DNA of 22,554 nucleotides from the IMG/VR virus record IMGVR_UViG_3300023210_000016; one strand, given 5' to 3'. This DNA is from a virus (taxonomy: Duplodnaviria > Heunggongvirae > Uroviricota > Caudoviricetes). The notes beneath the pieces were generated by a model. The model saw only the letters and a program-made list of their open reading frames with translations. It searched no databases and had not been told where the DNA came from. Of this stretch, positions 418-20,719 are shown piece by piece. Position 1 is the stretch's first letter. Each line of letters begins with the position of its first letter. Both the position numbers and the translations under genes were made by a program.

Positions 418-772
418 CTTCTATATCTCGAAATAATTTACTTGTGGCTCGTCTGGCTCTTCGTTGGAGCAGTCCGGGTTTACTAGCACTAAGGTGTGTC
501 AAGTTATGCTTTGATAACATTTCACGTAATGCGTCTTTGTCTTTTTCGGCAAGCTGTAATGATTTTTGCAACTTGTTGTTTGCCGCAGCGGTTCGTTTGA
601 AATCCGCTTCCATCGTGGCAATAGTATCCTTCTGGAGATCGACCGATACAGTCAGTTTCGCGTTGTTCTCATTCAATGTACGAATAGTAGCCTGTGTGTC
701 TTTGTAGTACATATAGAATATACCAGACATCACTGCCATAACAACCAACAATACTCCAACAACTTTTATCAT
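365..772 (-). CDS. i-spanin (Rz/PseT.3-like inner-membrane protein)
   Basis: Single N-terminal TM helix followed by a long coiled coil; directly upstream of the lipoprotein gene. Confidence 0.75.
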   Translation of the reverse strand: MIKVVGVLLVVMAVMSGIFYMYYKDTQATIRTLNENNAKLTVSVDLQKDTIATMEADFKRTAAANNKLQKSLQLAEKDKDALREMLSKHNLTHLSASKPGLLQRRARRATSKLFRDIEDETKAFSNPAPTDTPTE

Positions 773-2049
773 ATCTTTCCTAACAACCGGCGACGTTCGC
801 CTTCGCCTTCTTGGTATCCATCGGCTTTCCAGACATTTTCCAGACGTTTCAAAATAGCACCGATGTTCGGTCCAGAAGGAAGTCCTTTGGCTAGTAGGTC
901 TTTGCCGGATACGGGGAATACCGGCTTGGTATTCGATCCTAGATTATCCGCAAGGTCTTGCTTTCCTTGGTATTTAAGCAATTCAACGATGTATTCATCT
1001 TTTATTTTGGAGTTCGTGTACATCTTCATCGCTTCGTCCATGGTGATATCTTGATCACGCATGATAACAATAAATCGGGCAAGCTCACGATCTTCGATCT
1101 TCAGCTTCCAACTACCAGCGACCTTCAGTACATCATTCTCATTGTGTAGCAACGCCGCCAGCAATGATGCTGGGTTATTCGTGAACTGTTTCGCACGGTT
1201 GAACTCGTTCATATTCAATTCAGGCATACCCATGTGTTGTGTGACATCGGTAACTTCCATGTATGGTATAATTTTGTCAGTGTGATTGCCCGTGATGATC
1301 TTTGCAAATTCCGACCAGATACGTTCGCCACTGATCTGTCTCATTCCATTAGCGTTTCGTTTTACTGCGGCCAAAGTGGCTGTATTGAAATTCGGGGTAT
1401 CGTTGCGACCTTGGAATCGGAAGTACCGCAGTATACGAAGATAATCTTCGATCATTCTGCTATCAGCATCGCCGACAAATTTAGCAGTACCAGCTTTCAA
1501 ATCGCCCTCGCCACCATGATAATCATACAGACGACCATCAAAATCGAGAGACATTGCGTTCATTGTTAGATCGCGGCGATCTGAATCCGTCTTCCAGTCA
1601 CGTGTCCATGAAACATCGGCATGTCGGCCATCCTGCTCTGTATCAATACGCAGGGTAGTGATCTCAAAGTCTTCGCCATTTAGAACAGCGGTGAATGTTC
1701 CGTGTTTCAATCCAGTTGGAAGAATACGGATGCCGGTACGATTTGCTACACTTGCCAAAGCATCTTCTAAATCTCTCTTATCCGTGCTTTCGTCAGATGT
1801 ACCGAACATATCATATAATTTGTTAGCCCATTCAATGTCCATATCGGTTAGTATGGCAATTGATTCCGCAGGAGTGGCATCTGTGGCCAGATCGATATCT
1901 TTAGGGTTTTTGCTAATCAATAGATCACGCACTGCACCGCCAACGATACGGAGTTCATGTCCGTTATCATTGTAGATTTTTCCAAGTTTCATCAATGCTG
2001 GTGTTAGCAGTGCTTTGAACTCGGGCGAATTGATGTGGCGTGTGCTCAT
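769..2049 (-). CDS. cca: CCA-adding tRNA nucleotidyltransferase (class II, no HD domain)
   Basis: VGGAVRDLL, DIDLATDA, TGLKHGT, RRDLTMNAM, EDYLRILRYFRF, SGERIW and C-terminal FPVSGKDL..G.NIGAIL motifs. Confidence 0.9.
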   Translation of the reverse strand: MSTRHINSPEFKALLTPALMKLGKIYNDNGHELRIVGGAVRDLLISKNPKDIDLATDATPAESIAILTDMDIEWANKLYDMFGTSDESTDKRDLEDALASVANRTGIRILPTGLKHGTFTAVLNGEDFEITTLRIDTEQDGRHADVSWTRDWKTDSDRRDLTMNAMSLDFDGRLYDYHGGEGDLKAGTAKFVGDADSRMIEDYLRILRYFRFQGRNDTPNFNTATLAAVKRNANGMRQISGERIWSEFAKIITGNHTDKIIPYMEVTDVTQHMGMPELNMNEFNRAKQFTNNPASLLAALLHNENDVLKVAGSWKLKIEDRELARFIVIMRDQDITMDEAMKMYTNSKIKDEYIVELLKYQGKQDLADNLGSNTKPVFPVSGKDLLAKGLPSGPNIGAILKRLENVWKADGYQEGEGERRRLLGKI

Positions 2050-2082
2050 TGTAACTCCATTAATATGTCAACGTGTCCTGTC

Positions 2083-2691
2083 TTATTTATCCGGCACAAC
2101 GTATCCAAAGTGGGCGATTTCGTCTGGAAACGTGTCTTGAATGAACTGTATATATGAGTCAGTATAGTACTCTTTTGGGTTGTATTTCTGAACATGAGAT
2201 GCCCGTGTTAGTGGTTCGAAGCATCCTGTGTGTTCTTGTATTTGTTTGAAGCCTTGGTCTAGATTGTCGAGGTCAATAACTATATCTACATTTCGGATGT
2301 ATTCCATTTGGGAAATGGTATGTTTCTCATTGCGTTGCCTGTTGGTTTGGATGTAATTCTCTATCCCGTTGTCCCATTCAAACATATCATCGTCGTATTG
2401 TTTTGTCAACCTCGCAATGTCTGCATCGTTTTGTGCCCGTGATAACATTTTCTTCAATCGTTCGGGACGATGTGCAAACAGGTACATGCTAACCATACGT
2501 TCGTAGGTATTTCTGGTTACGGTAAATGATATGTTGTATGCAAAATGTGGGATTAATGGTTTCATCTCGTCCAACGATAAATGCCCTACAAATTTTGGAG
2601 AACCGATGTGCGTTTTGAACCAATTGCCTATGCTACCACCAGCGGCTTTGGGTATATGAACGAATGCCGTGCCGTTACAGAGGAACGACAT
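2083..2691 (-). CDS. Sulfotransferase family protein (Sulfotransfer_2-like)
   Basis: 5'-PSB motif FVHIPKAAGGSI and 3'-PB motif RNTYERMVSMY. Confidence 0.8.
   Translation of the reverse strand: MSFLCNGTAFVHIPKAAGGSIGNWFKTHIGSPKFVGHLSLDEMKPLIPHFAYNISFTVTRNTYERMVSMYLFAHRPERLKKMLSRAQNDADIARLTKQYDDDMFEWDNGIENYIQTNRQRNEKHTISQMEYIRNVDIVIDLDNLDQGFKQIQEHTGCFEPLTRASHVQKYNPKEYYTDSYIQFIQDTFPDEIAHFGYVVPDK
2084..2091 (-). promoter_or_regulatory. T4 late-type promoter box GATAAATA upstream of cca
   Basis: Matches NATAAATA; overlaps the sulfotransferase stop, ~35 nt upstream of the cca start. Confidence 0.5.
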
Positions 2692-3443
2692 TAGTCCAAA
2701 AACTTTTTGGCCAAGTTCGCTTTTTGGGCAATAATCTTCTTAAAATCAGCTACGGCTTTTTCTGGATCATCCATCATGCCATCCGGAAACCAATTTCTGG
2801 ATTGTGATTTAATGTGATCATAGTATTGGTCAGGGTTCTGATAATTCCCATCATGAACATCCTTCAATAGCCCAGACCATATTGTCCCATCCATGCTGTG
2901 ATCCATGGGGAATTGGTTTGGCTTCACGCCAGATAAATCTGCGATGATTTCTTTTTCTTGTTCTGCTGTGTTGCGTATCTCAGATATAGGGAGTTTATCC
3001 CCGCGTCGATCTCTGATGTGGGAGATTCTGTTGCTCAGTACATCCAATGCGTGGCTTGCCAAAGCGGGAACATATGCAACAACGTTATCGAGGGTGATGT
3101 TATATTTAAGTAACATCGGACTGCGTGAATGATCGCCCGTTGGTGTGAAAATCAAGCCGGGCGAGTTATTTGCCATATTGAATCCTATATCAAATGAAGT
3201 GGTCGTGGATGCAATTTTATCTTCTCGCATATCCGATTGGTTTTGCAAACTCAATGCTCGGTATACGGCGATGTTGCCACCGTGTAATTGGCGAACAAGG
3301 TTAACGGACATCTCTTTCAGGTATGGTTTCTTTTGAACTATCTCCGCGATTCGTCCTTTACCAGTTTCGATGTCAGCCAAGATTGCCTTGGCTTCGGGGA
3401 GACTGATGCGGGATTTCGCTTCTAAGAGTTCATGTATCTTCAT
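2691..3443 (-). CDS. Putative R-S-E clade ADP-ribosyltransferase with MKIHELLE leader
   Basis: Motifs in ART order: VYRAL (R), ASTTTS (STS), EQEKEII (ExE). Confidence 0.6.
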   Translation of the reverse strand: MKIHELLEAKSRISLPEAKAILADIETGKGRIAEIVQKKPYLKEMSVNLVRQLHGGNIAVYRALSLQNQSDMREDKIASTTTSFDIGFNMANNSPGLIFTPTGDHSRSPMLLKYNITLDNVVAYVPALASHALDVLSNRISHIRDRRGDKLPISEIRNTAEQEKEIIADLSGVKPNQFPMDHSMDGTIWSGLLKDVHDGNYQNPDQYYDHIKSQSRNWFPDGMMDDPEKAVADFKKIIAQKANLAKKFLD

Positions 3444-3805
3444 TATTCTTTACTCAGGAATTTTATATATTTAGCTGGAATTGGCTCTTGAGTGGACCAC
3501 TCCCAACTGCTGTCTCCGGTGAACGTAGGGGCCGCAGGGAAGTTGTTTGGCAATGTGATAGACAATGCTGCTAGATCGACACCTTCGCCGTACTTTTCTT
3601 CGTATTCTTCACCAAGCCAATTCATCAACGCATTGTTCATATCATCGATGGATGGGAACATGAAAATCCCATGATCGCCCATTACTTCGCTGCGGGTGCC
3701 AGATTTTGGAATAAGCCCTTGGGTCAGAATAGATTTAACATTATCATACAAGGTAACATGATAGAACGTTCGGGAAACATTATCCGTAAGTTCATGTATC
3801 TTCAC
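3443..3805 (-). CDS. Small ART-fold protein (H-x-T type, Tpt1/DarT-like NAD-binding domain) with MKIHEL leader
   Basis: FYHVT...SILTQGLIP...GIFMF...WEW...IPAKYI pattern; GTG start overlapping the upstream TGA. Confidence 0.6.
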   Translation of the reverse strand: MKIHELTDNVSRTFYHVTLYDNVKSILTQGLIPKSGTRSEVMGDHGIFMFPSIDDMNNALMNWLGEEYEEKYGEGVDLAALSITLPNNFPAAPTFTGDSSWEWSTQEPIPAKYIKFLSKE

Positions 3806-4275
3806 GCCCAGTCCTTGTCAAAGGTTTCCGTGTATTCATTCGTGACCACCAACTTAACATCAGGAGTCGGTAACTCGGTTAAACTCAGATCACATGCCTC
3901 GTAACTCAAGGTAACGTGTGGAGTATAGCTATCAAAATCCCATGATAAATCGTGGGCATCCATGCCATGTTCGTGACGTTTATTAAGCTCCGGACATTCA
4001 AAAGATAACACAAGTACGTTGTTTTCTTCTCCGAACAGTTCCAACTTATATGTACTTGGATCAATTTCCACGTTATGTTCGGCTGATTCCCAATCGAACT
4101 GTTTGTCTTTGCTGTACAGCACAGTTACGTGCATGTCGTCGGCGGGTGTCGGTTTATCGATCCCGTGCCGGTGTGTCCAGTCTTGTAGACTTTTGATGCT
4201 GTCTTCGCTAATATGTGCGCCTACAAACATTCCGGGCTTCTCTGCCCGTTCTTCTAGTAATTCTGATATCATCAT
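3802..4275 (-). CDS. acb1: Anti-CBASS nuclease Acb1 (T4 gp57B-like 2H phosphodiesterase)
   Basis: Two HxT motifs (MHVTVLYS, YTPHVTLSY), N-terminal GMFVGA, VLVL, C-terminal EY.E...DWA; colinear with T4 57B as I recall it. Confidence 0.85.
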   Translation of the reverse strand: MMISELLEERAEKPGMFVGAHISEDSIKSLQDWTHRHGIDKPTPADDMHVTVLYSKDKQFDWESAEHNVEIDPSTYKLELFGEENNVLVLSFECPELNKRHEHGMDAHDLSWDFDSYTPHVTLSYEACDLSLTELPTPDVKLVVTNEYTETFDKDWA

Positions 4276-4691
4276 CCTATTGCTCTCTTCACCATTGGGT
4301 GATCTAAGTCGCGTCTGTCTCTACAGCCGATGTATAGCGGGGCCGCGAATCCATCCGCCCAATGTTCGTCCATATCCCATTCGTCGGCATGAACCTCTTC
4401 TGATGTGGAAAATAAAAACAACTCGCCTACTGCGGTTCTGCCGCTTAAAAATGCACTCACATCATCATGGTGCGCCAAATATGAATTCCAAACATACAAC
4501 TTGTTCTCCCATATAAGACCCCTGAGTTCTGATTCTAGCCCAACCATTATTCTATCTAAGTCTTTTCGCGAAGGGTTCACATACAAAATGGTATCATCGA
4601 CACTCCATTGATCTGGTGGCATCGGTATACGTTTAAGTTCCGACAACGTTGCCTCACTAATCATATCTAGTTTTTTCAACAATACCTTCAT
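4272..4691 (-). CDS. Hypothetical protein
   Basis: 139-aa ORF coupled by ATGA overlap in the same operon; N-terminus contains MISEA. Confidence 0.7.
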   Translation of the reverse strand: MKVLLKKLDMISEATLSELKRIPMPPDQWSVDDTILYVNPSRKDLDRIMVGLESELRGLIWENKLYVWNSYLAHHDDVSAFLSGRTAVGELFLFSTSEEVHADEWDMDEHWADGFAAPLYIGCRDRRDLDHPMVKRAIG

Positions 4692-4718
4692 TGTACCATA
4701 ACCATCCGTTGATGTCTA

Positions 4719-5162
4719 TTAAATCCGTGTGTACACAGTTTTGCCATCAACCTTATCCGCTGCCAGAACTTCATTACGTCCCGGCTCAAAGTAAGAACAA
4801 TGTATCCAGCCACCAGATGGGGAGTCTAGGAATTCAAAAATCAATTGATCGAACTCTAGATTGTCTCTGATCCAATTGCCTAGCTCTTGGATGCTGGCAC
4901 CCGAAGCACTGAAGTCTGCGGCTTGGCCTTTTGAATGTTGTGATGTTGTTGATCCGCCAATAGCTTCATTCAATGCGTCTGAACGATAGCCTGATGTTAC
5001 GGTGATTGGGCCGAAATGATCTCGGCATGGCTGTAAGATTTTCTCACATAACAGTTGTAAGTTATCTTGGTGTACGTCGGTTGGGCTGTTATCCAGCCCT
5101 CTTCTAGTTGCCGTTTGGCTTCTAGTCATTTCATTAAGTGAGAAGTTTGCTGATAGTTTCAT
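4719..5162 (-). CDS. Peptidase M15A family endolysin
   Basis: VTSGYRS, SQH.KGQAADF, GWIHCS Zn-peptidase motifs; start set at MKLSANFSL (5162), just after the upstream stop. Confidence 0.85.
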   Translation of the reverse strand: MKLSANFSLNEMTRSQTATRRGLDNSPTDVHQDNLQLLCEKILQPCRDHFGPITVTSGYRSDALNEAIGGSTTSQHSKGQAADFSASGASIQELGNWIRDNLEFDQLIFEFLDSPSGGWIHCSYFEPGRNEVLAADKVDGKTVYTRI

Positions 5163-5163
5163 G

Positions 5164-5787
5164 TTAACGCCTTGCTCGTGTTGCTGGCTTCGTAGATTCT
5201 TTATGATCATTGAATGAAACACCTGCCTGTTCTCTTAGTTTGTCTGTGAATTTGTTTCTTGGAGCATACCGATTGACATTCATACCAGCCGCCATTTGAA
5301 GTGATTCCATTGCAACATCAACGCCATCTTCGATGCCATTCATGTCCTTGTCGCCATAGTATTCACGATACTCGCGTGGGGAGTTCGGGATTTCGTTCTC
5401 CAGATTTTCCTGTGTAACAGGCAGTCGTCTGTCGTTTTTGTAATACATGAATTCCCAGTCCTTATGATCGATCTCTGTTAGTGCTTCCATATCTACGAGG
5501 ATTTCGATGATCTTCGCAGGTGTCCATGTTCGGCGTTTGATTTCAACAAACACCAGATATTTTCCGTCTTGGAATTCACCTGTGCTGACATCAGCGTCCA
5601 GAACGTCGTTGAATCCCTTCTCAAGGAACCCCATCAAATCCATTGCTGGATTTTTGCCGGTCACCAAGAAGCTAACGACTACGATTTCATCATCATCACC
5701 CATTTTACTGCGAAACTGATCAATATGTAGCTCGGGACGAACCAATCGGTTCAGATCGCCCTCGTTAAGACCCTCAAATAAATTCAT
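5164..5787 (-). CDS. Conserved-looking hypothetical large-phage protein (possible head/core protein)
   Basis: Long acidic ORF; start MNLFEGLNEG at 5787 overlaps the upstream stop by 14 nt. Confidence 0.65.
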   Translation of the reverse strand: MNLFEGLNEGDLNRLVRPELHIDQFRSKMGDDDEIVVVSFLVTGKNPAMDLMGFLEKGFNDVLDADVSTGEFQDGKYLVFVEIKRRTWTPAKIIEILVDMEALTEIDHKDWEFMYYKNDRRLPVTQENLENEIPNSPREYREYYGDKDMNGIEDGVDVAMESLQMAAGMNVNRYAPRNKFTDKLREQAGVSFNDHKESTKPATRARR

Positions 5788-6337
5788 CTTCTTCTGCTCC
5801 TGTTCCAACATCTTCCATTTCTTCATCTGTTTCAGATGTATCCACGTTTGCTTGATCCATCATACCTTCATCAAATGCGCTTTCGACCTGTTGTAGATCG
5901 ACTTCTTTGCCCTCGATTTCGAGTGAACCTTCTTTAATGTCACTGACAAGCTCTCGTGGCATGATGATATTCACGAACCAAACGGGTACTTCCTTGATTT
6001 CTGGCTTATGTGAGCCATCATCGCGGTAGTCTGCATCTGTTTTGATTGTTACGGGGAAGCGTAATACGCCTTTTTTCCAGAACATTTTGCACCCTAATTC
6101 GAGCAATCGTTTGCCACCATTTGGGTCAGGCATGACTGCTACAGGCCACATAAACTTGCATGATACGAAGTATTTCTCGTACAATGGGCCTTCCACCAGT
6201 TCACCTTGTTTCCAGTGTTTGAATGAGTACACGTCCTGTTCATCGAGCACACGCTCAAAGTCCATGAGCGTTGTCAATGCACTGTTGGTCAAGTACAGCA
6301 TTTTCGTATTTTTTACAGCATCGTCAAGATTGAGCAT
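5774..6337 (-). CDS. Hypothetical large-phage protein with acidic tail
   Basis: 187-aa ORF with SD AAGGA and a CATAAATA box upstream. Confidence 0.75.
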   Translation of the reverse strand: MLNLDDAVKNTKMLYLTNSALTTLMDFERVLDEQDVYSFKHWKQGELVEGPLYEKYFVSCKFMWPVAVMPDPNGGKRLLELGCKMFWKKGVLRFPVTIKTDADYRDDGSHKPEIKEVPVWFVNIIMPRELVSDIKEGSLEIEGKEVDLQQVESAFDEGMMDQANVDTSETDEEMEDVGTGAEEDEFI

Positions 6338-6511: not shown

Positions 6512-7240
6512 ATGTCTAGAAGTAAAAAGGCAAAAGGCTTTAAATACAACAATGAGCCAGTAGTTCAACTAGATAACTACATCACTAAAAAGAAACGTGT
6601 GGACATGATCCCACGAAACATCAATCAAGAAGAGTACGTAGAATTGCTACTCGATCCAAGTAAATTAATGGTTTTTGCGGTAGGTCCAGCGGGCACTGGT
6701 AAAACGATGCTAGCCGTATTAGCAGCCATCAAAGCTTACAAAGAAGGATCGATACAACGAATCGTGCTTACAAGACCTGCAGTGGGCGTTGATGACGAGA
6801 AGCATGGATTTTTACCGGGTGACCTAAATCAGAAAATGGAACCTTGGACTAAGCCGTTGTTTGATGTCATCAACGAATACTACACCCCAAAGGATGTGGC
6901 AAACATGATCGAAAATGATATCATTGAAATTGCACCGTTAGCTATGATGCGCGGCAGAACGTTCAAGAATTGTTTCATCATTGCTGACGAAATGCAGAAC
7001 GCCACTCCAAATCAAATGAAGATGATTCTAACTCGATTAGGAGAAAATTCTGAAATGGTGATTACGGGTGATGTCAATCAAACAGATAGACAAGCGGCCC
7101 AAAATGGATTACTTGACTTTGGAAAGCTTCTTAGCAGATTCGGAGAAGCGGAATACATCGACTCAGTTGAATTTAACCGAGACGATATAGAACGTCATCC
7201 TGCTGTCAAAGAAGTGTTGGATATCTACGGCGAGGACTAG
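6512..7240 (+). CDS. phoH: PhoH-like ATPase
   Basis: GPAGTGKT Walker A, RGRTF, DEMQN, GDVNQTD, RHPAV motifs; ATG 6512 follows AAGGAG. Confidence 0.92.
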   Translation: MSRSKKAKGFKYNNEPVVQLDNYITKKKRVDMIPRNINQEEYVELLLDPSKLMVFAVGPAGTGKTMLAVLAAIKAYKEGSIQRIVLTRPAVGVDDEKHGFLPGDLNQKMEPWTKPLFDVINEYYTPKDVANMIENDIIEIAPLAMMRGRTFKNCFIIADEMQNATPNQMKMILTRLGENSEMVITGDVNQTDRQAAQNGLLDFGKLLSRFGEAEYIDSVEFNRDDIERHPAVKEVLDIYGED

Positions 7241-7548
7241 TCTGTTCCATTGTATGGCGGTACATTCGCCGTAGCTGGAGCATTCAGAGACTTCACCATT
7301 GCGTCAAGCATGCGTAGCATTGCGTTGAACTCAGCGTTGATGTCTTTTTGACCATTGGTCGGGACGCAAATAGCTTCCACGCCACTTCCCTGTGCCAAAA
7401 CCGTATGCTTTGCTTCCACGCCACTTCCCTGTGCCAAAACCGTATGCTTTGCTTCCACGCACTTGTTCATGGCATTTTTACCATCATATTCTGTGCGAAT
7501 TTCAGCACCGCTCATGAGTGTGATAATTAACATTGCTTTCATAATCAT
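7237..7548 (-). CDS. Small hypothetical protein with hydrophobic N-terminus and an in-frame 13-aa duplication
   Basis: Start MIMKAMLIITL at 7548 after AGGA; convergent stop shares CTAG with phoH. Confidence 0.6.
   Translation of the reverse strand: MIMKAMLIITLMSGAEIRTEYDGKNAMNKCVEAKHTVLAQGSGVEAKHTVLAQGSGVEAICVPTNGQKDINAEFNAMLRMLDAMVKSLNAPATANVPPYNGTD
7373..7460. repeat. Perfect 39-bp tandem duplication plus a 10-bp third partial copy
   Basis: 7373-7411 equals 7412-7450; GCTTCCACGC recurs at 7373, 7412 and 7451. Confidence 0.95.
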
Positions 7549-7549
7549 G

Positions 7550-7936
7550 TCAGTCTTCCTTCTTTGTTTGTGCGTTACGTGTTCGGGTGTCCATATCACT
7601 CAGCCATTCAACCATTTTCTCTTTGCAGATGGCTTCATTCGCCATCGCTGCTCTAAGGTTGTCGTGGTGCATTTTTAGTTCCTCGGGCTGATGTCCTCGA
7701 ATGCCCTCCATCCGAAGATACAAGTTGTATATACGATTGTCAGAACGTATCCACAACCATATGAACTGATTGAACACAGATGCTTTGTCTGATAACAATT
7801 CTACGGTATAGATATCATTGTATTTGAACTTGGTCTCAACAACAAACCGTGCTTCATCATAGGAGTCACTGACCTCGGACGGATCATATGTCCATTGTTT
7901 GCCAAGCTTCTCCGAGAAATAGTCAAGGTCTTTCAT
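7550..7936 (-). CDS. Hypothetical protein
   Basis: ORF fills the operon gap; start MKDLDY at 7936, just after the upstream stop. Confidence 0.65.
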   Translation of the reverse strand: MKDLDYFSEKLGKQWTYDPSEVSDSYDEARFVVETKFKYNDIYTVELLSDKASVFNQFIWLWIRSDNRIYNLYLRMEGIRGHQPEELKMHHDNLRAAMANEAICKEKMVEWLSDMDTRTRNAQTKKED

Positions 7937-16844: not shown

Positions 16845-17102
16845 TTATGATCCGATGTTGATTATATCATCAAACTCGCCATCGCTATCTTCATCTGCGT
16901 CGGCTAGAATTTGAGCATATTCTTTCTGTTGACGTTCGGTAAGTTCAACAGTATATTGATTGATAACGACTTGCATTTGATCCAGTAAGCCAATAGTCAT
17001 TCCCATCTGTCTGGCCGATGCCATCTTTCGATGAAGATCGGACAGTTTCTTAACAATGTCTTTGGTCTCAAAATCTGCGAGATTGTTGATCAATGGATGC
17101 AT
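16845..17102 (-). CDS. Small helical hypothetical protein
   Basis: 85-aa ORF coupled by TAATG. Confidence 0.7.
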   Translation of the reverse strand: MHPLINNLADFETKDIVKKLSDLHRKMASARQMGMTIGLLDQMQVVINQYTVELTERQQKEYAQILADADEDSDGEFDDIINIGS

Positions 17103-17413
17103 TAGAATGCTCCAAGTTTGGTGCTGCCCCCAGCTTTATCGGAATACACGTGAGTGATATATCCATCCATTGGGGTCTCTTTAAGCGTGGCCATGAACTC
17201 GTCTAGTTCATCCTTGTTTGCATTATCCCACAGGAATTGCCAAACTGGTTCCAGTGCCTGATGCTTTTTCTCATTAGCTGCCATCGAGATAAACCCACCA
17301 AATCGGGCCATCCCAAGATGTTTGTACATTGCAGATTGTGTCACCCTGTGAATGAAAATATGCTTGTTGTGGTCTTCGATGGTGTCGGCTTCAAATAACA
17401 ATCGTAGTTTCAT
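17102..17413 (-). CDS. Hypothetical protein with MKLRLLFE leader
   Basis: 103-aa ORF coupled by TAATG on both sides. Confidence 0.7.
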   Translation of the reverse strand: MKLRLLFEADTIEDHNKHIFIHRVTQSAMYKHLGMARFGGFISMAANEKKHQALEPVWQFLWDNANKDELDEFMATLKETPMDGYITHVYSDKAGGSTKLGAF

Positions 17414-17883: not shown

Positions 17884-18711
17884 TTATTTAACGATTTGTG
17901 GCGTAACATTGATGGCTATTGGTGGATCACAAGGTTCCATGGTAGCGGTTTTGATTACTTCATTGGAATGGAATGGCTTGAACCCTTGCGACCGATCCAA
18001 ACTCCATGTAATATGATTTGTTCCACCGTCTGGAACACGCTTTGTTGATCCATCGATTTCTACGATCAATGCTTCTAATCCTTTTGTGTTCACGCGCCCG
18101 ATCACATTAACCGTGCGTGGTTGTTCTGGAACACCCAATGCGACTTTCATTGAGTACGTAATGTGATGTCCGATCCATTCAGGATATTGTGGTGGGTATT
18201 TCTTAGCAAGAGCATCGCGTGATGGTTTATCAAGGACGTATGCAATATAGCCCGAGTACCCTTCTTTAATGAGTTTTTTAGATATGTCTTTTAACCAGTC
18301 GTCACGACTTTTATTCATGGTCATTGGGTTTCCAAAATCACTAACATTAAAGACATCAACGATATCATTAACGGATACGTCACTCTGTGATTTCATCGCT
18401 TTGCCTTGTCCAAACATAAGATTTGGATCATTAGATGGGTCTAACTTCCATAGGTCAGATGTTTTCACGCGAATGATAGATGTGTCGTCCTTGAAATTGA
18501 ATTGCATTTTTTGTGCCCAATTAACCGCATCGACTGGATGTTCGAATGCAAACAACCCAGCATCGGTGTTATATCGTTCGCCATCTCGGCGTACCCAATT
18601 GCTTGGTTGAAATTGCATCAATCCCTGTTTCATGATGCTTGGTACATTTTTAGTGAGCGTGGCATGATACAAATAGTTCGATGATTCACCCAAGAGTTCT
18701 TTAATCTTCAT
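17884..18711 (-). CDS. ART-fold / 2H phosphoesterase fusion protein with MKIKELLGE leader
   Basis: N-terminal YLYHAT...SIMKQGL...LFAF; C-terminal HHITY and HITWS HxT pair; start 18711 coupled by TAATG. Confidence 0.7.
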   Translation of the reverse strand: MKIKELLGESSNYLYHATLTKNVPSIMKQGLMQFQPSNWVRRDGERYNTDAGLFAFEHPVDAVNWAQKMQFNFKDDTSIIRVKTSDLWKLDPSNDPNLMFGQGKAMKSQSDVSVNDIVDVFNVSDFGNPMTMNKSRDDWLKDISKKLIKEGYSGYIAYVLDKPSRDALAKKYPPQYPEWIGHHITYSMKVALGVPEQPRTVNVIGRVNTKGLEALIVEIDGSTKRVPDGGTNHITWSLDRSQGFKPFHSNEVIKTATMEPCDPPIAINVTPQIVK

Positions 18712-19444: not shown

Positions 19445-20089
19445 TTAGGTATCTCCATTCTTGTAGTTATTTATACAAACATCACGATGTCTCATGAAGT
19501 TTGCGCCGACATCTGCGAATTCTCGCGCACAGATATCGCATGTTAGTTTTGGTTTGTTTTTAAGTGTTTCGCTGATAAGTTTGCGTCTATGTGTTGGTAC
19601 ATTTTTTCCGCGCAGGGACAGGGATAAATTGTTGCGATGCTCGAAAGATTTGATCATTCCGGTTCTAGTTTCGCTCATTTTTGTTCTGGTCTCAACGGTA
19701 TGCGCGATGCCCATGTGCGAATCGGATAACTTATTGCAGTGTCCATCAGACATTTTTATTCCTTTGTTCCATGGCGATAATCCCATTGTACCTTCCCCGC
19801 CATAGGTCATATTATATCCTCCGTCAGTTGAATAATGGGTACCATACTGTTCTATGAAATATTTCTCCATAACATGCAAGGTATGATCAAGATGATTGCT
19901 CTGATATATGGCTTCAATTGTAAAATTCTCAATCCCGTGCTTTCTCATTGCGTTATATAGATAGTATGACGATTTTCTTGCTTTTGCCTTATGCATTCTG
20001 AAACGATGTTCAATTGATTTGCTTGTAAAACCTACGTACATTTTATCATTGATTTGGTTGGTGATTTTGTATATGCTATAAATATTCAT
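19445..20089 (-). CDS. GIY-YIG homing endonuclease with NUMOD3 repeats and C-terminal Zn finger
   Basis: IYSIYKITN...MYVGFT...RF..H, E.YFI, GYNMT.GGEG, PWNKG, NUMOD3-like repeats, CDIC. Confidence 0.88.
   Translation of the reverse strand: MNIYSIYKITNQINDKMYVGFTSKSIEHRFRMHKAKARKSSYYLYNAMRKHGIENFTIEAIYQSNHLDHTLHVMEKYFIEQYGTHYSTDGGYNMTYGGEGTMGLSPWNKGIKMSDGHCNKLSDSHMGIAHTVETRTKMSETRTGMIKSFEHRNNLSLSLRGKNVPTHRRKLISETLKNKPKLTCDICAREFADVGANFMRHRDVCINNYKNGDT
19468..19475 (-). promoter_or_regulatory. Perfect T4 late promoter TATAAATA inside the 3' end of the endonuclease gene
   Basis: Exact consensus, followed by GGAG and ATG 19442. Confidence 0.7.
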
Positions 20090-20157: not shown

Positions 20158-20719
20158 CTGCTTTTTCGATGTTTATAAGTTTGACAGGCCCCTGAACTGT
20201 GATTTCTCGTTCTTCGGAAAATTCTGGATTTGAATTTTGTATCAAGGTTTCTTGCCAATCGATATTACGAACATCTACTGTTGCAGAGAACAACCACCTA
20301 ACATCGCCTTGTTTCTTGTTACCCCAATGCGGTGTTGCTGAAGATTTCGACCAAGCCCAATATCGATCACCCTGAAGTGATGGTTTTTTGTTTTCCGGAG
20401 CATATATCGCTCTCCATATTGGGATTCTGGTGCCTTGCATTTGGGACGTTATAGTACTGATTGATCTATCGATTTCGTACATCAAATCATTTTTAAGCCA
20501 TGCAACGAAATCATCATCATAACGTACAAGTTCGGAAAATCGAAGGGCATCATATGGCGTGTTTCCGGTTTCGCGTTGATATGTTCTGGTCAATTCCCGC
20601 CAGATCAAAGTGTCTGGAGCACTTGTGATATCTCGGAAAATCGATTCGATGACTTCATCTTTGTCTATATCGGAAAGAAACGATTGTTGCTGATTTTCAA
20701 GAAGTTCAGATATAAGCAT
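20153..20719 (-). CDS. Putative R-S-E clade ADP-ribosyltransferase with MLISELLE leader
   Basis: IWRAI (R), YWAWSKSSA (S motif), EEREITV (ExE). Confidence 0.55.
   Translation of the reverse strand: MLISELLENQQQSFLSDIDKDEVIESIFRDITSAPDTLIWRELTRTYQRETGNTPYDALRFSELVRYDDDFVAWLKNDLMYEIDRSISTITSQMQGTRIPIWRAIYAPENKKPSLQGDRYWAWSKSSATPHWGNKKQGDVRWLFSATVDVRNIDWQETLIQNSNPEFSEEREITVQGPVKLINIEKAA

Follow-up and report, generated by a model that had tools for sequence, protein, structure and literature searches.

Does one phage carry an arsenal of ADP-ribosyltransferases (ARTs) from more than one clade and, if so, to what end? The question is raised by IMG/VR record IMGVR_UViG_3300023210_000016, a 22,554-nucleotide (nt) stretch of DNA (the window) from an uncultured marine T4-like jumbo phage. 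An original prediction had placed four ART-fold proteins of two clades here, all sharing an N-terminal leader and directed at host machines or defenses, or at phage DNA. We find the R-S-E signatures in genes A and E and the H-x-T signatures in gene B and the N-terminal half of gene D exactly where they had been placed, and all four proteins bear the leader, as does the product of a fifth gene, C. The division into two clades is borne out by family conservation and predicted fold for A (R-S-E) and for the N-terminal half of D (H-x-T). Overall, the window appears to encode at least two, and probably four, NAD-using ART-type enzymes of two kinds: A and D stand, B has partial homology and E is a lead, so that the number four is not established. 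The five genes are:

2691-3443, minus strand: gene A, 250 residues
3443-3805, minus strand: gene B, 120 residues, with a GTG start overlapping the stop codon of C
3802-4275, minus strand: gene C, 157 residues
17884-18711, minus strand: gene D, 275 residues, read from an ATG that overlaps the upstream stop codon
20153-20719, minus strand: gene E, 188 residues

ART folds of A and D

The predicted structure of A consists of N-terminal helices (residues 1-55), an ART core (56-180) and a C-terminal helical bundle (182-250). The core is a split beta-sheet of the ART type, along which Arg, S-T-S and E-x-E motifs succeed one another in the order expected of the R-S-E clade:

3258-3260, minus strand: Arg62 (VYR62AL), near-invariant, in strand 1 (residues 57-66)
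3201-3209, minus strand: Ser79-Thr80-Thr81 (AS79TTTS), an S-T-S-type motif in a strand (77-81) that leads into a helix
2949-2957, minus strand: Glu163-Lys-Glu165 (E-K-E-IIA), an E-x-E motif in which E165 opens a strand (165-169)

Searching 1.84 billion representatives exhaustively with HMMER recovered 73 relatives of A at E <= 1e-3; a word-indexed homologue search returned A alone. In a family alignment of 30 sequences, R62, E163 and E165 are near-invariant and S79-T-T, Y114 and P126 are conserved, giving the consensus 'vfR ... VSTT ... LLRY ... YVP ... E-x-EVIADVSGL-P', with V-S-T-T/S at the S-T-T column. The AlphaFold2 model built from this alignment has a mean predicted local distance difference test score (pLDDT) of 93 and a predicted template modeling score (pTM) of 0.87, and structure matches to its core are ART folds only, IcmQ among them. 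Foldseek with this model gave nothing at E <= 1e-3; the best weak rows include pertussis toxin S1, PltA, ParT and Vis. In the structure matches to the core, the alignment ranges of LT/CT, pertussis S1 and PltA would put the catalytic Arg7/Arg9 of these toxins on residue 62 of A. Because the structure matches are uniform and the three conserved motifs fall on the right strands, we take A, with solid support from its model, to be an R-S-E ART of a family that lacks annotation. The E-x-E form of the motif in this clade points to an arginine acceptor, and A is therefore most likely an arginine-directed protein mono-ART.

Gene D encodes two domains (model pLDDT 79), which homologues carry separately: P0002 (151 residues) corresponds to the N-terminal half alone and P0003-P0007 (~200 residues) to the C-terminal half.

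18262-18711, minus strand: N-terminal half of D, residues 1-150, a predicted minimal H-x-T ART core with H16 and T18 (LYH16AT18), F54 and D91
17884-18261, minus strand: C-terminal half of D, residues 151-275 plus the stop codon, a 2H phosphoesterase with GHH183IT185 and NH233IT235, after the linker L-I-K-E150

The best structural match of the N-terminal half is Tpt1 (Foldseek E 1.5e-4), and a profile of six sequences searched against the PDB found Escherichia coli DarT1 (E 0.007) followed by Tpt1 chains (0.026). Pfam and NCBIfam yielded recurrent sub-threshold Tpt1 matches to D, confined to the H-x-T strand and its helix, with Pfam PTS_2-RNA scores of 12-14 bits versus a cut-off of 26. Invariant in the six-sequence alignment are Y15, H16, T18, N22, I26, G30, D61 and W65, and every member of the family except B keeps an aromatic residue (F54; Tyr in L004) and Asp91 ('W-x-h-D'). 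Relatives of this half in viral contigs comprise one free-standing 141-residue gene, from a 389-kb phage, and domains of giant open reading frames (ORFs) of 1100 to >1900 residues. The NAD-binding ART lobe with its H-x-T strand, as in Tpt1/KptA, is predicted for this half of D and likely for B, and the matches cover Tpt1 residues ~90-180 only. The N-terminal RNA lobe of Tpt1 contributes three residues (Arg-His-Arg) of its Arg-His-Arg-Arg catalytic tetrad. Strand 1 begins at residue 13 in D and about residue 14 in B; the 10-12 residues ahead of it leave no room for an RNA lobe, and we therefore rejected D as a true Tpt1. It is instead well supported, on the basis of its model, as a minimal H-x-T ART core, whose nearest counterparts are DarT, Arr and the NAD lobe of Tpt1. 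Acceptors for such enzymes are phosphates, nucleic acids or small molecules.

Profile libraries are blind to both families. Among the Pfam ART families (ADPrib_exo_Tox, Mod_ADP_RT, DRAT, ART-PolyVal, DarT/DUF4433 and Arr), none is listed for any of the four proteins A, B, D and E, even at E <= 10, and they go unrecognized by every ART model of NCBIfam and PHROG. For A, searches of Pfam, NCBIfam, PHROG and PDB sequences gave nothing, Pfam matched none of the 30 aligned family members, to an ART family or to any other, and the family profile found nothing in three related virus records. The sole match of this profile in the PDB, an aldo-keto reductase at E 0.03, was rejected as chance.

The two families also meet in other genomes. 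Protein P0013 is a single chain in which an A-like domain (residues 2-243) precedes a domain like the N-terminal half of D (252-389, E 5e-32). In the giant polyvalent proteins P0043 and P0026, Pfam ART-PolyVal, an H-x-T type ('VYHGT'), lies directly ahead of the A-like domain, and in P0036, a third such protein, the two sit side by side. The same pairing is seen in the window, where B lies immediately ahead of A and their stop and start codons overlap. We considered A as an ART-PolyVal domain and rejected this assignment, as ART-PolyVal is of the other type and falls beside the A-like domain, not over it. Further A-like domains occur in a tape-measure-like protein (P0044; 3256 residues, with a minor-tail/tape-measure domain), in a PcfJ-bearing giant protein, and ahead of a C-terminal GNAT acetyltransferase in P0040 and P0047, which would place two protein-modifying enzymes in one chain. 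In BFVD, A matches a 1390-residue 'head morphogenesis domain' protein.

Genes B and E

B is a short relative of the N-terminal half of D. BLASTP aligns the two at E 1e-7 (40% over 58 residues), and a profile of the D family from which B was left out gives B 18.2 bits, versus at most 6.9 for 2000 shuffles. B carries H16 and T18 (FYH16VT18), F48 and E107. The last, within 'QEPIP', resembles 'FEKIPP' of DarT1 in an HMMER segment that is not significant; in this same non-significant stretch, a Glu occupies the DarT1-aligned position in B and P0002 and is missing from D, L001 and L004. Searches of viral and metagenome contigs found no relatives of B, those of Pfam, PHROG and NCBIfam found no ART family, and that of PDB sequences gave noise. 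From its sequence, B is likely to have an ART fold, and its activity appears doubtful.

E contains IWR103AI, WS124KSSA and E170-R-E172-ITV, in an order that fits a minimal R-S-E core. Its nearest named neighbors in the ESM Atlas are DRAT (15/30), ADPrib_exo_Tox and Mod_ADP_RT, with scores of <= 0.90 that make them leads. Scored with the A-family profile, E comes 6th of 2001 when set against its own shuffles, and no other non-self ORF in the window scores better, with only the Arg motif aligned and an hhalign probability of 3.5%; a direct comparison of A with E by BLASTP and hhalign was not significant. Pfam, PHROG, NCBIfam and PDB sequence searches with E returned nothing, and a word-indexed search found only E itself. 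We consider it fairly likely that E is an ART, in which case it is probably a second, minimal R-S-E enzyme. The claim that the motifs exceed chance thus holds for A (through its 30-sequence family), for D (six-sequence family and ART fold) and for residues 9-37 of B, and does not extend to E, which has no homologue.

2H enzymes, a shared leader and proposed delivery with DNA

Two 2H phosphodiesterases accompany the putative ARTs. C is of the Acb1 type (Pfam Acb1, E 2.2e-35; PHROG 755), with HVT motifs at residues 49-51 and 120-122, and both C and the C-terminal half of D show two H-x-T/S motifs on a 2H fold. BLASTP of C against this half of D was not significant, and their kinship is at the level of the fold only. 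The 2H structure matches of D include the Appr>p cyclic phosphodiesterase and the 2'-5' RNA ligase. In P0003-P0007, the 2H domain follows N-terminal parts unrelated to that of D. An H-x-T protein is thus linked to a 2H enzyme twice in the window, by fusion in D and by adjacency in C-B. An L/I-x-E tripeptide stands immediately before the 2H domain in D (L-I-K-E150; 18244-18282, minus strand) and in P0003-P0007 (L-H-E, L-M-E, L-D-E, L-N-E and L-Q-E). We propose, by analogy with T4, that this could be the spot at which a gp21-type protease would release the 2H enzyme.

All five proteins begin M-x-I-x-E-L:

3414-3443, minus strand: leader of A, MKIHELLEAK
3776-3805, minus strand: leader of B
4246-4275, minus strand: leader of C
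18682-18711, minus strand: leader of D
20690-20719, minus strand: leader of E

The codons of the leader vary between copies, indicating conservation at the peptide level. I-x-E occupies residues 3-5 in five of the five; L-L-E follows in A, C and E, and L-G-E in D. In T4, residues 1-10 of IPIII are a propeptide that serves as the capsid-targeting sequence, the protease gp21 cleaves behind Glu, and the propeptide removed from Alt is seven residues long (PMC9026906). The leader resembles such propeptides in being short and N-terminal and in bearing an L/I-x-E motif. It is poorly modeled (pLDDT 35 in D and 70 in A) and is borne on three unrelated folds, as would fit a portable signal. Weaker leader-like starts occur in two genes that have no family match, at 4272-4691 (minus strand; MKVLLKKLDMISEA) and 17102-17413 (minus strand; MKLRLLFEA).

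Contigs with relatives of both families code for a T4-type prohead protease. A homologue 39% identical to A sits between Peptidase_S77, the family of T4 gp21, and Gp23. The 389-kb phage with a leader-bearing D homologue encodes Peptidase_S77 (E 1e-29), and in this phage the homologue and both of its neighbors start M-x-F-K-N-F-L-x-E-A or M-R-I-D-E-I. The gene downstream of P0002 starts MKSQEFITE, and P0003-P0007 start MKAKEFI-E or MRAHEFV-E. As neighbors of D-like genes bear a local leader, leader-bearing genes appear to cluster there too. In relatives L003 (2669-3782) and L007 (1826-3034), the neighboring genes begin MEFKNFLREA, MRIDEIVGEL and MKSQEFITEQ.

Gene coupling and putative promoter sites in the window would fit late expression. 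D is translationally coupled to a 243-residue gene and E to a gene of >610 residues, and a putative late promoter precedes the former:

19468-19475, minus strand: TATAAATA, matching the consensus of T4-type late promoters, 26 nt ahead of the 243-residue gene coupled to D

Exact matches to TATAAATA number four in the window versus 1.07 expected, and CATAAATA stands 18 nt before the first of two virion-protein genes upstream of C-B-A, one-mismatch sites being no more frequent than by chance.

These observations suggest a model, for which we judge the chances to be somewhat better than even, in which a leader-tagged set of ARTs and 2H enzymes is packaged in the head and injected to subdue the host. 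The leader, of 8-10 residues (M-x-I-x-E-L-L-x-E), would mark genes expressed late alongside structural genes and would work like the T4 capsid-targeting sequence, bringing the proteins into the prohead, where a gp21-type protease could cut after I/L-x-E. The mature enzymes would then reach the host with the DNA; there, the ARTs would draw on host NAD+ in modifying proteins or nucleic acids of the host, and the 2H enzymes would destroy cyclic-nucleotide alarm signals. C, with its capsid-type leader MMISELLEE, may therefore be an Acb1 that enters the host ready-made along with the DNA. The polyvalent-protein and head-gene contexts, the 2H links and the ART fusions point to delivery with DNA rather than to modification of phage DNA, the other role originally suggested. 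Iyer et al. (PMC9503650) argue that head packaging is common in myoviruses for phage ARTs and for some 2H domains. A bolder version of the model, which we regard as unlikely, holds that the portable leader lets marine T4-like jumbo phages fill the head with a changeable enzyme cocktail (ARTs of two or three new families, plus two 2H enzymes including Acb1), that counter-defense would start at DNA entry, and that an H-x-T enzyme and an A-type R-S-E enzyme form a pair acting in sequence on one target, as suggested by B-A and by P0013, P0043 and P0026.

Several points weigh against, or qualify, a packaged set of active enzymes. In D, the second catalytic position is Phe rather than Tyr or His, and at the DarT1-aligned position there is Ser-Asp (residues 110-111) in place of Glu; B lacks the conserved Asp of the family, and its confident alignment spans only residues 9-37, some 30 residues of H-x-T strand and helix. 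With catalytic positions degenerate in D and B, some copies may be inactive. E has no homologues in viral contigs, metagenome contigs, the phage collection or the three related virus records, and its ESM Atlas model is poor (pLDDT 0.60). The linkages of ARTs to 2H enzymes and to each other may reflect co-delivery rather than joint chemistry. For this phage the analysis covered the 22,554-nt window, and Peptidase_S77 is seen in relatives only; one-mismatch late-promoter sites are at chance level. Finally, DarT1 (PDB 8baq, E. coli C7) starts MTIQEIIQ-x7-LFHFTH, much as B and D do from leader through H-x-T strand. Given this N-terminus ahead of an H-x-T strand, the leader of B and D may in part be an ancestral N-terminal helix and not a targeting signal; the DarT helix and the phage leader may even have a common origin.

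One competing explanation is RNA repair, in which B and the N-terminal half of D would strip healed RNA of its 2'-phosphates with NAD+ in the manner of Tpt1, and C and the C-terminal half of D would open 2',3'-cyclic ends or hydrolyze the by-product Appr>p. The combined action of these proteins and the nearby CCA-adding enzyme would repair tRNAs that host anticodon nucleases had cleaved. Tpt1 is indeed the top structural match of D, two RNA-processing enzymes are among its 2H matches, the H-x-T/2H linkage is doubled, a CCA-adding enzyme lies near A and also near P0010, and jumbo phages carry repair sets of KptA, 2H and ligase (PMC9503650). However, the missing RNA lobe, PTS_2-RNA scores that reflect the H-x-T motif only, the clear membership of C in Acb1, and the lack of any RNA ligase in the window all speak against it, as does the way the halves of D behave in relatives, with 2H domains attached to unrelated N-terminal parts and the ART domain alone or in polyvalent proteins. 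We find this scheme quite unlikely.

Other alternatives concern the leader and the chemistry. The ARTs might be made in the infected cell and stay unpackaged, like T4 ModA and ModB (PMC9503650), with the common N-terminus serving translation initiation, degradation or timing, or acting as a docking helix. This reading accommodates the similar N-terminus of DarT1, which is not a capsid protein, and the indirect nature of the case for packaging. By contrast, the retention of the leader peptide despite varied codons, its presence with I/L-x-E motifs on unrelated folds, the gp21-type proteases in genomes or contigs of leader-bearing relatives, the recurrence of both families in injected polyvalent or tape-measure-like proteins, and the location of the genes within strings of structural genes all make it distinctly improbable. 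A further idea is that some or all of the ART-fold proteins are NAD+-consuming hydrolases or non-catalytic sponges that, together with the 2H enzymes, blunt Thoeris- or CBASS-type signaling. The degenerate positions of D (F54, Ser-Asp 110-111) and B would fit, as would the association with signal-degrading 2H enzymes and the match of A to IcmQ, representing ART folds that bind NAD without transfer. Yet A retains a full and strongly conserved R / S-T-S / E-x-E set, D-family members retain the His, Thr, aromatic and Asp residues, and no sponge family was matched, so that we consider this idea very improbable.

Neighborhood and comparison with known systems

The window is densely packed phage DNA with genes mostly on the minus strand. 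In the clamp-loader gene it shares 46% identity with PA5oct-group Pseudomonas jumbo phages, and a megablast of positions 2000-5000 against 50,697 phage records found no match. Several marine metagenome assemblies contain the same phage, and the gene calls in them are identical, down to the 120-residue, GTG-started B. Neighboring features are:

769-2049, minus strand: CCA-adding enzyme, 650 bp downstream of A
2083-2691, minus strand: 202-residue gene between A and the CCA-adding enzyme, with a weak PHROG match to galactose-3-O-sulfotransferase (E 6e-6)
5164-6337: two 'virion structural protein' PHROG families; the C-B-A string comes after these two genes
7237-7599, minus strand: ORF containing VEAKHTVLAQGSG twice, an exact 13-residue tandem duplication encoded by a 39-nt direct repeat
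Elsewhere in the window, by family matches: M15 peptidase, PhoH, spanins and a head-morphogenesis (GroES-like) gene

A gene for a CCA-adding enzyme lies a short way downstream of A here and also beside the A homologue P0010 (39% identity); this could reflect conserved synteny or a functional link to tRNA.

More broadly, the set would add two ART families to those in current profile libraries, an R-S-E family with 73 relatives and a minimal H-x-T family, both of which would travel in injected contexts: polyvalent proteins, a tape-measure-like protein and small genes tagged with the leader. Should the leader prove to be a capsid-targeting signal, the anti-CBASS enzyme Acb1 and several NAD+-using enzymes would be delivered pre-made, which would bear on how phages escape defenses that fire within minutes. 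The leader would then also offer an easy way to recognize head cargo by sequence in uncultured T4-like phages, and the repeated coupling of H-x-T with R-S-E ARTs is a hypothesis specific enough for experimental testing.

Among known systems, T4 Alt, an R-S-E ART that is packaged in the head and has propeptides cut by gp21, and the Alt/ModA/ModB set are comparable in having several R-S-E-type ARTs in one phage, a short propeptide-like I/L-x-E leader, a T4-like head-gene context (here in a relative) and probable delivery with DNA. The window set differs in that no sequence model of ADPrib_exo_Tox or Mod_ADP_RT matches it, in the short, 17-residue Arg-to-STS spacing of A, and in the N-terminal helical region and C-terminal helical bundle of A; moreover, its packaging and cleavage are presumptive. 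The ART domains of phage and plasmid polyvalent proteins (Pfam ART-PolyVal, PF18760; Iyer et al. 2017, PMC5512222; 2022, PMC9503650) are comparable in that A-like and D-like domains also turn up within giant multidomain ORFs, whereas those of the window are free-standing with their own leader, and A, B and D do not match its model. In contrast to Tpt1/KptA, D and B correspond to the NAD lobe only, lack the RNA lobe with most of the tetrad, and score far below cut-offs. They differ from DarT (an ssDNA thymidine ART) and Arr (a rifampin ART) in the variable Glu position across the D family and in the lack of a DarG/macro-domain partner among the ORFs scanned, which were part of those in the window. 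C belongs to the Acb1 family, and the C-terminal half of D shares with viral 2H enzymes a fold bearing two H-x-T motifs; what sets them apart is that C carries, and the 2H half of D follows, a capsid-type leader, and that D is fused to an ART core. T4 Acb1 is not known to be packaged. Phages with several, often packaged, ARTs are already in the literature. The novelty here lies in the families, in their occurrence as free-standing genes with a leader, and in the way H-x-T recurrently pairs both with R-S-E and with 2H.

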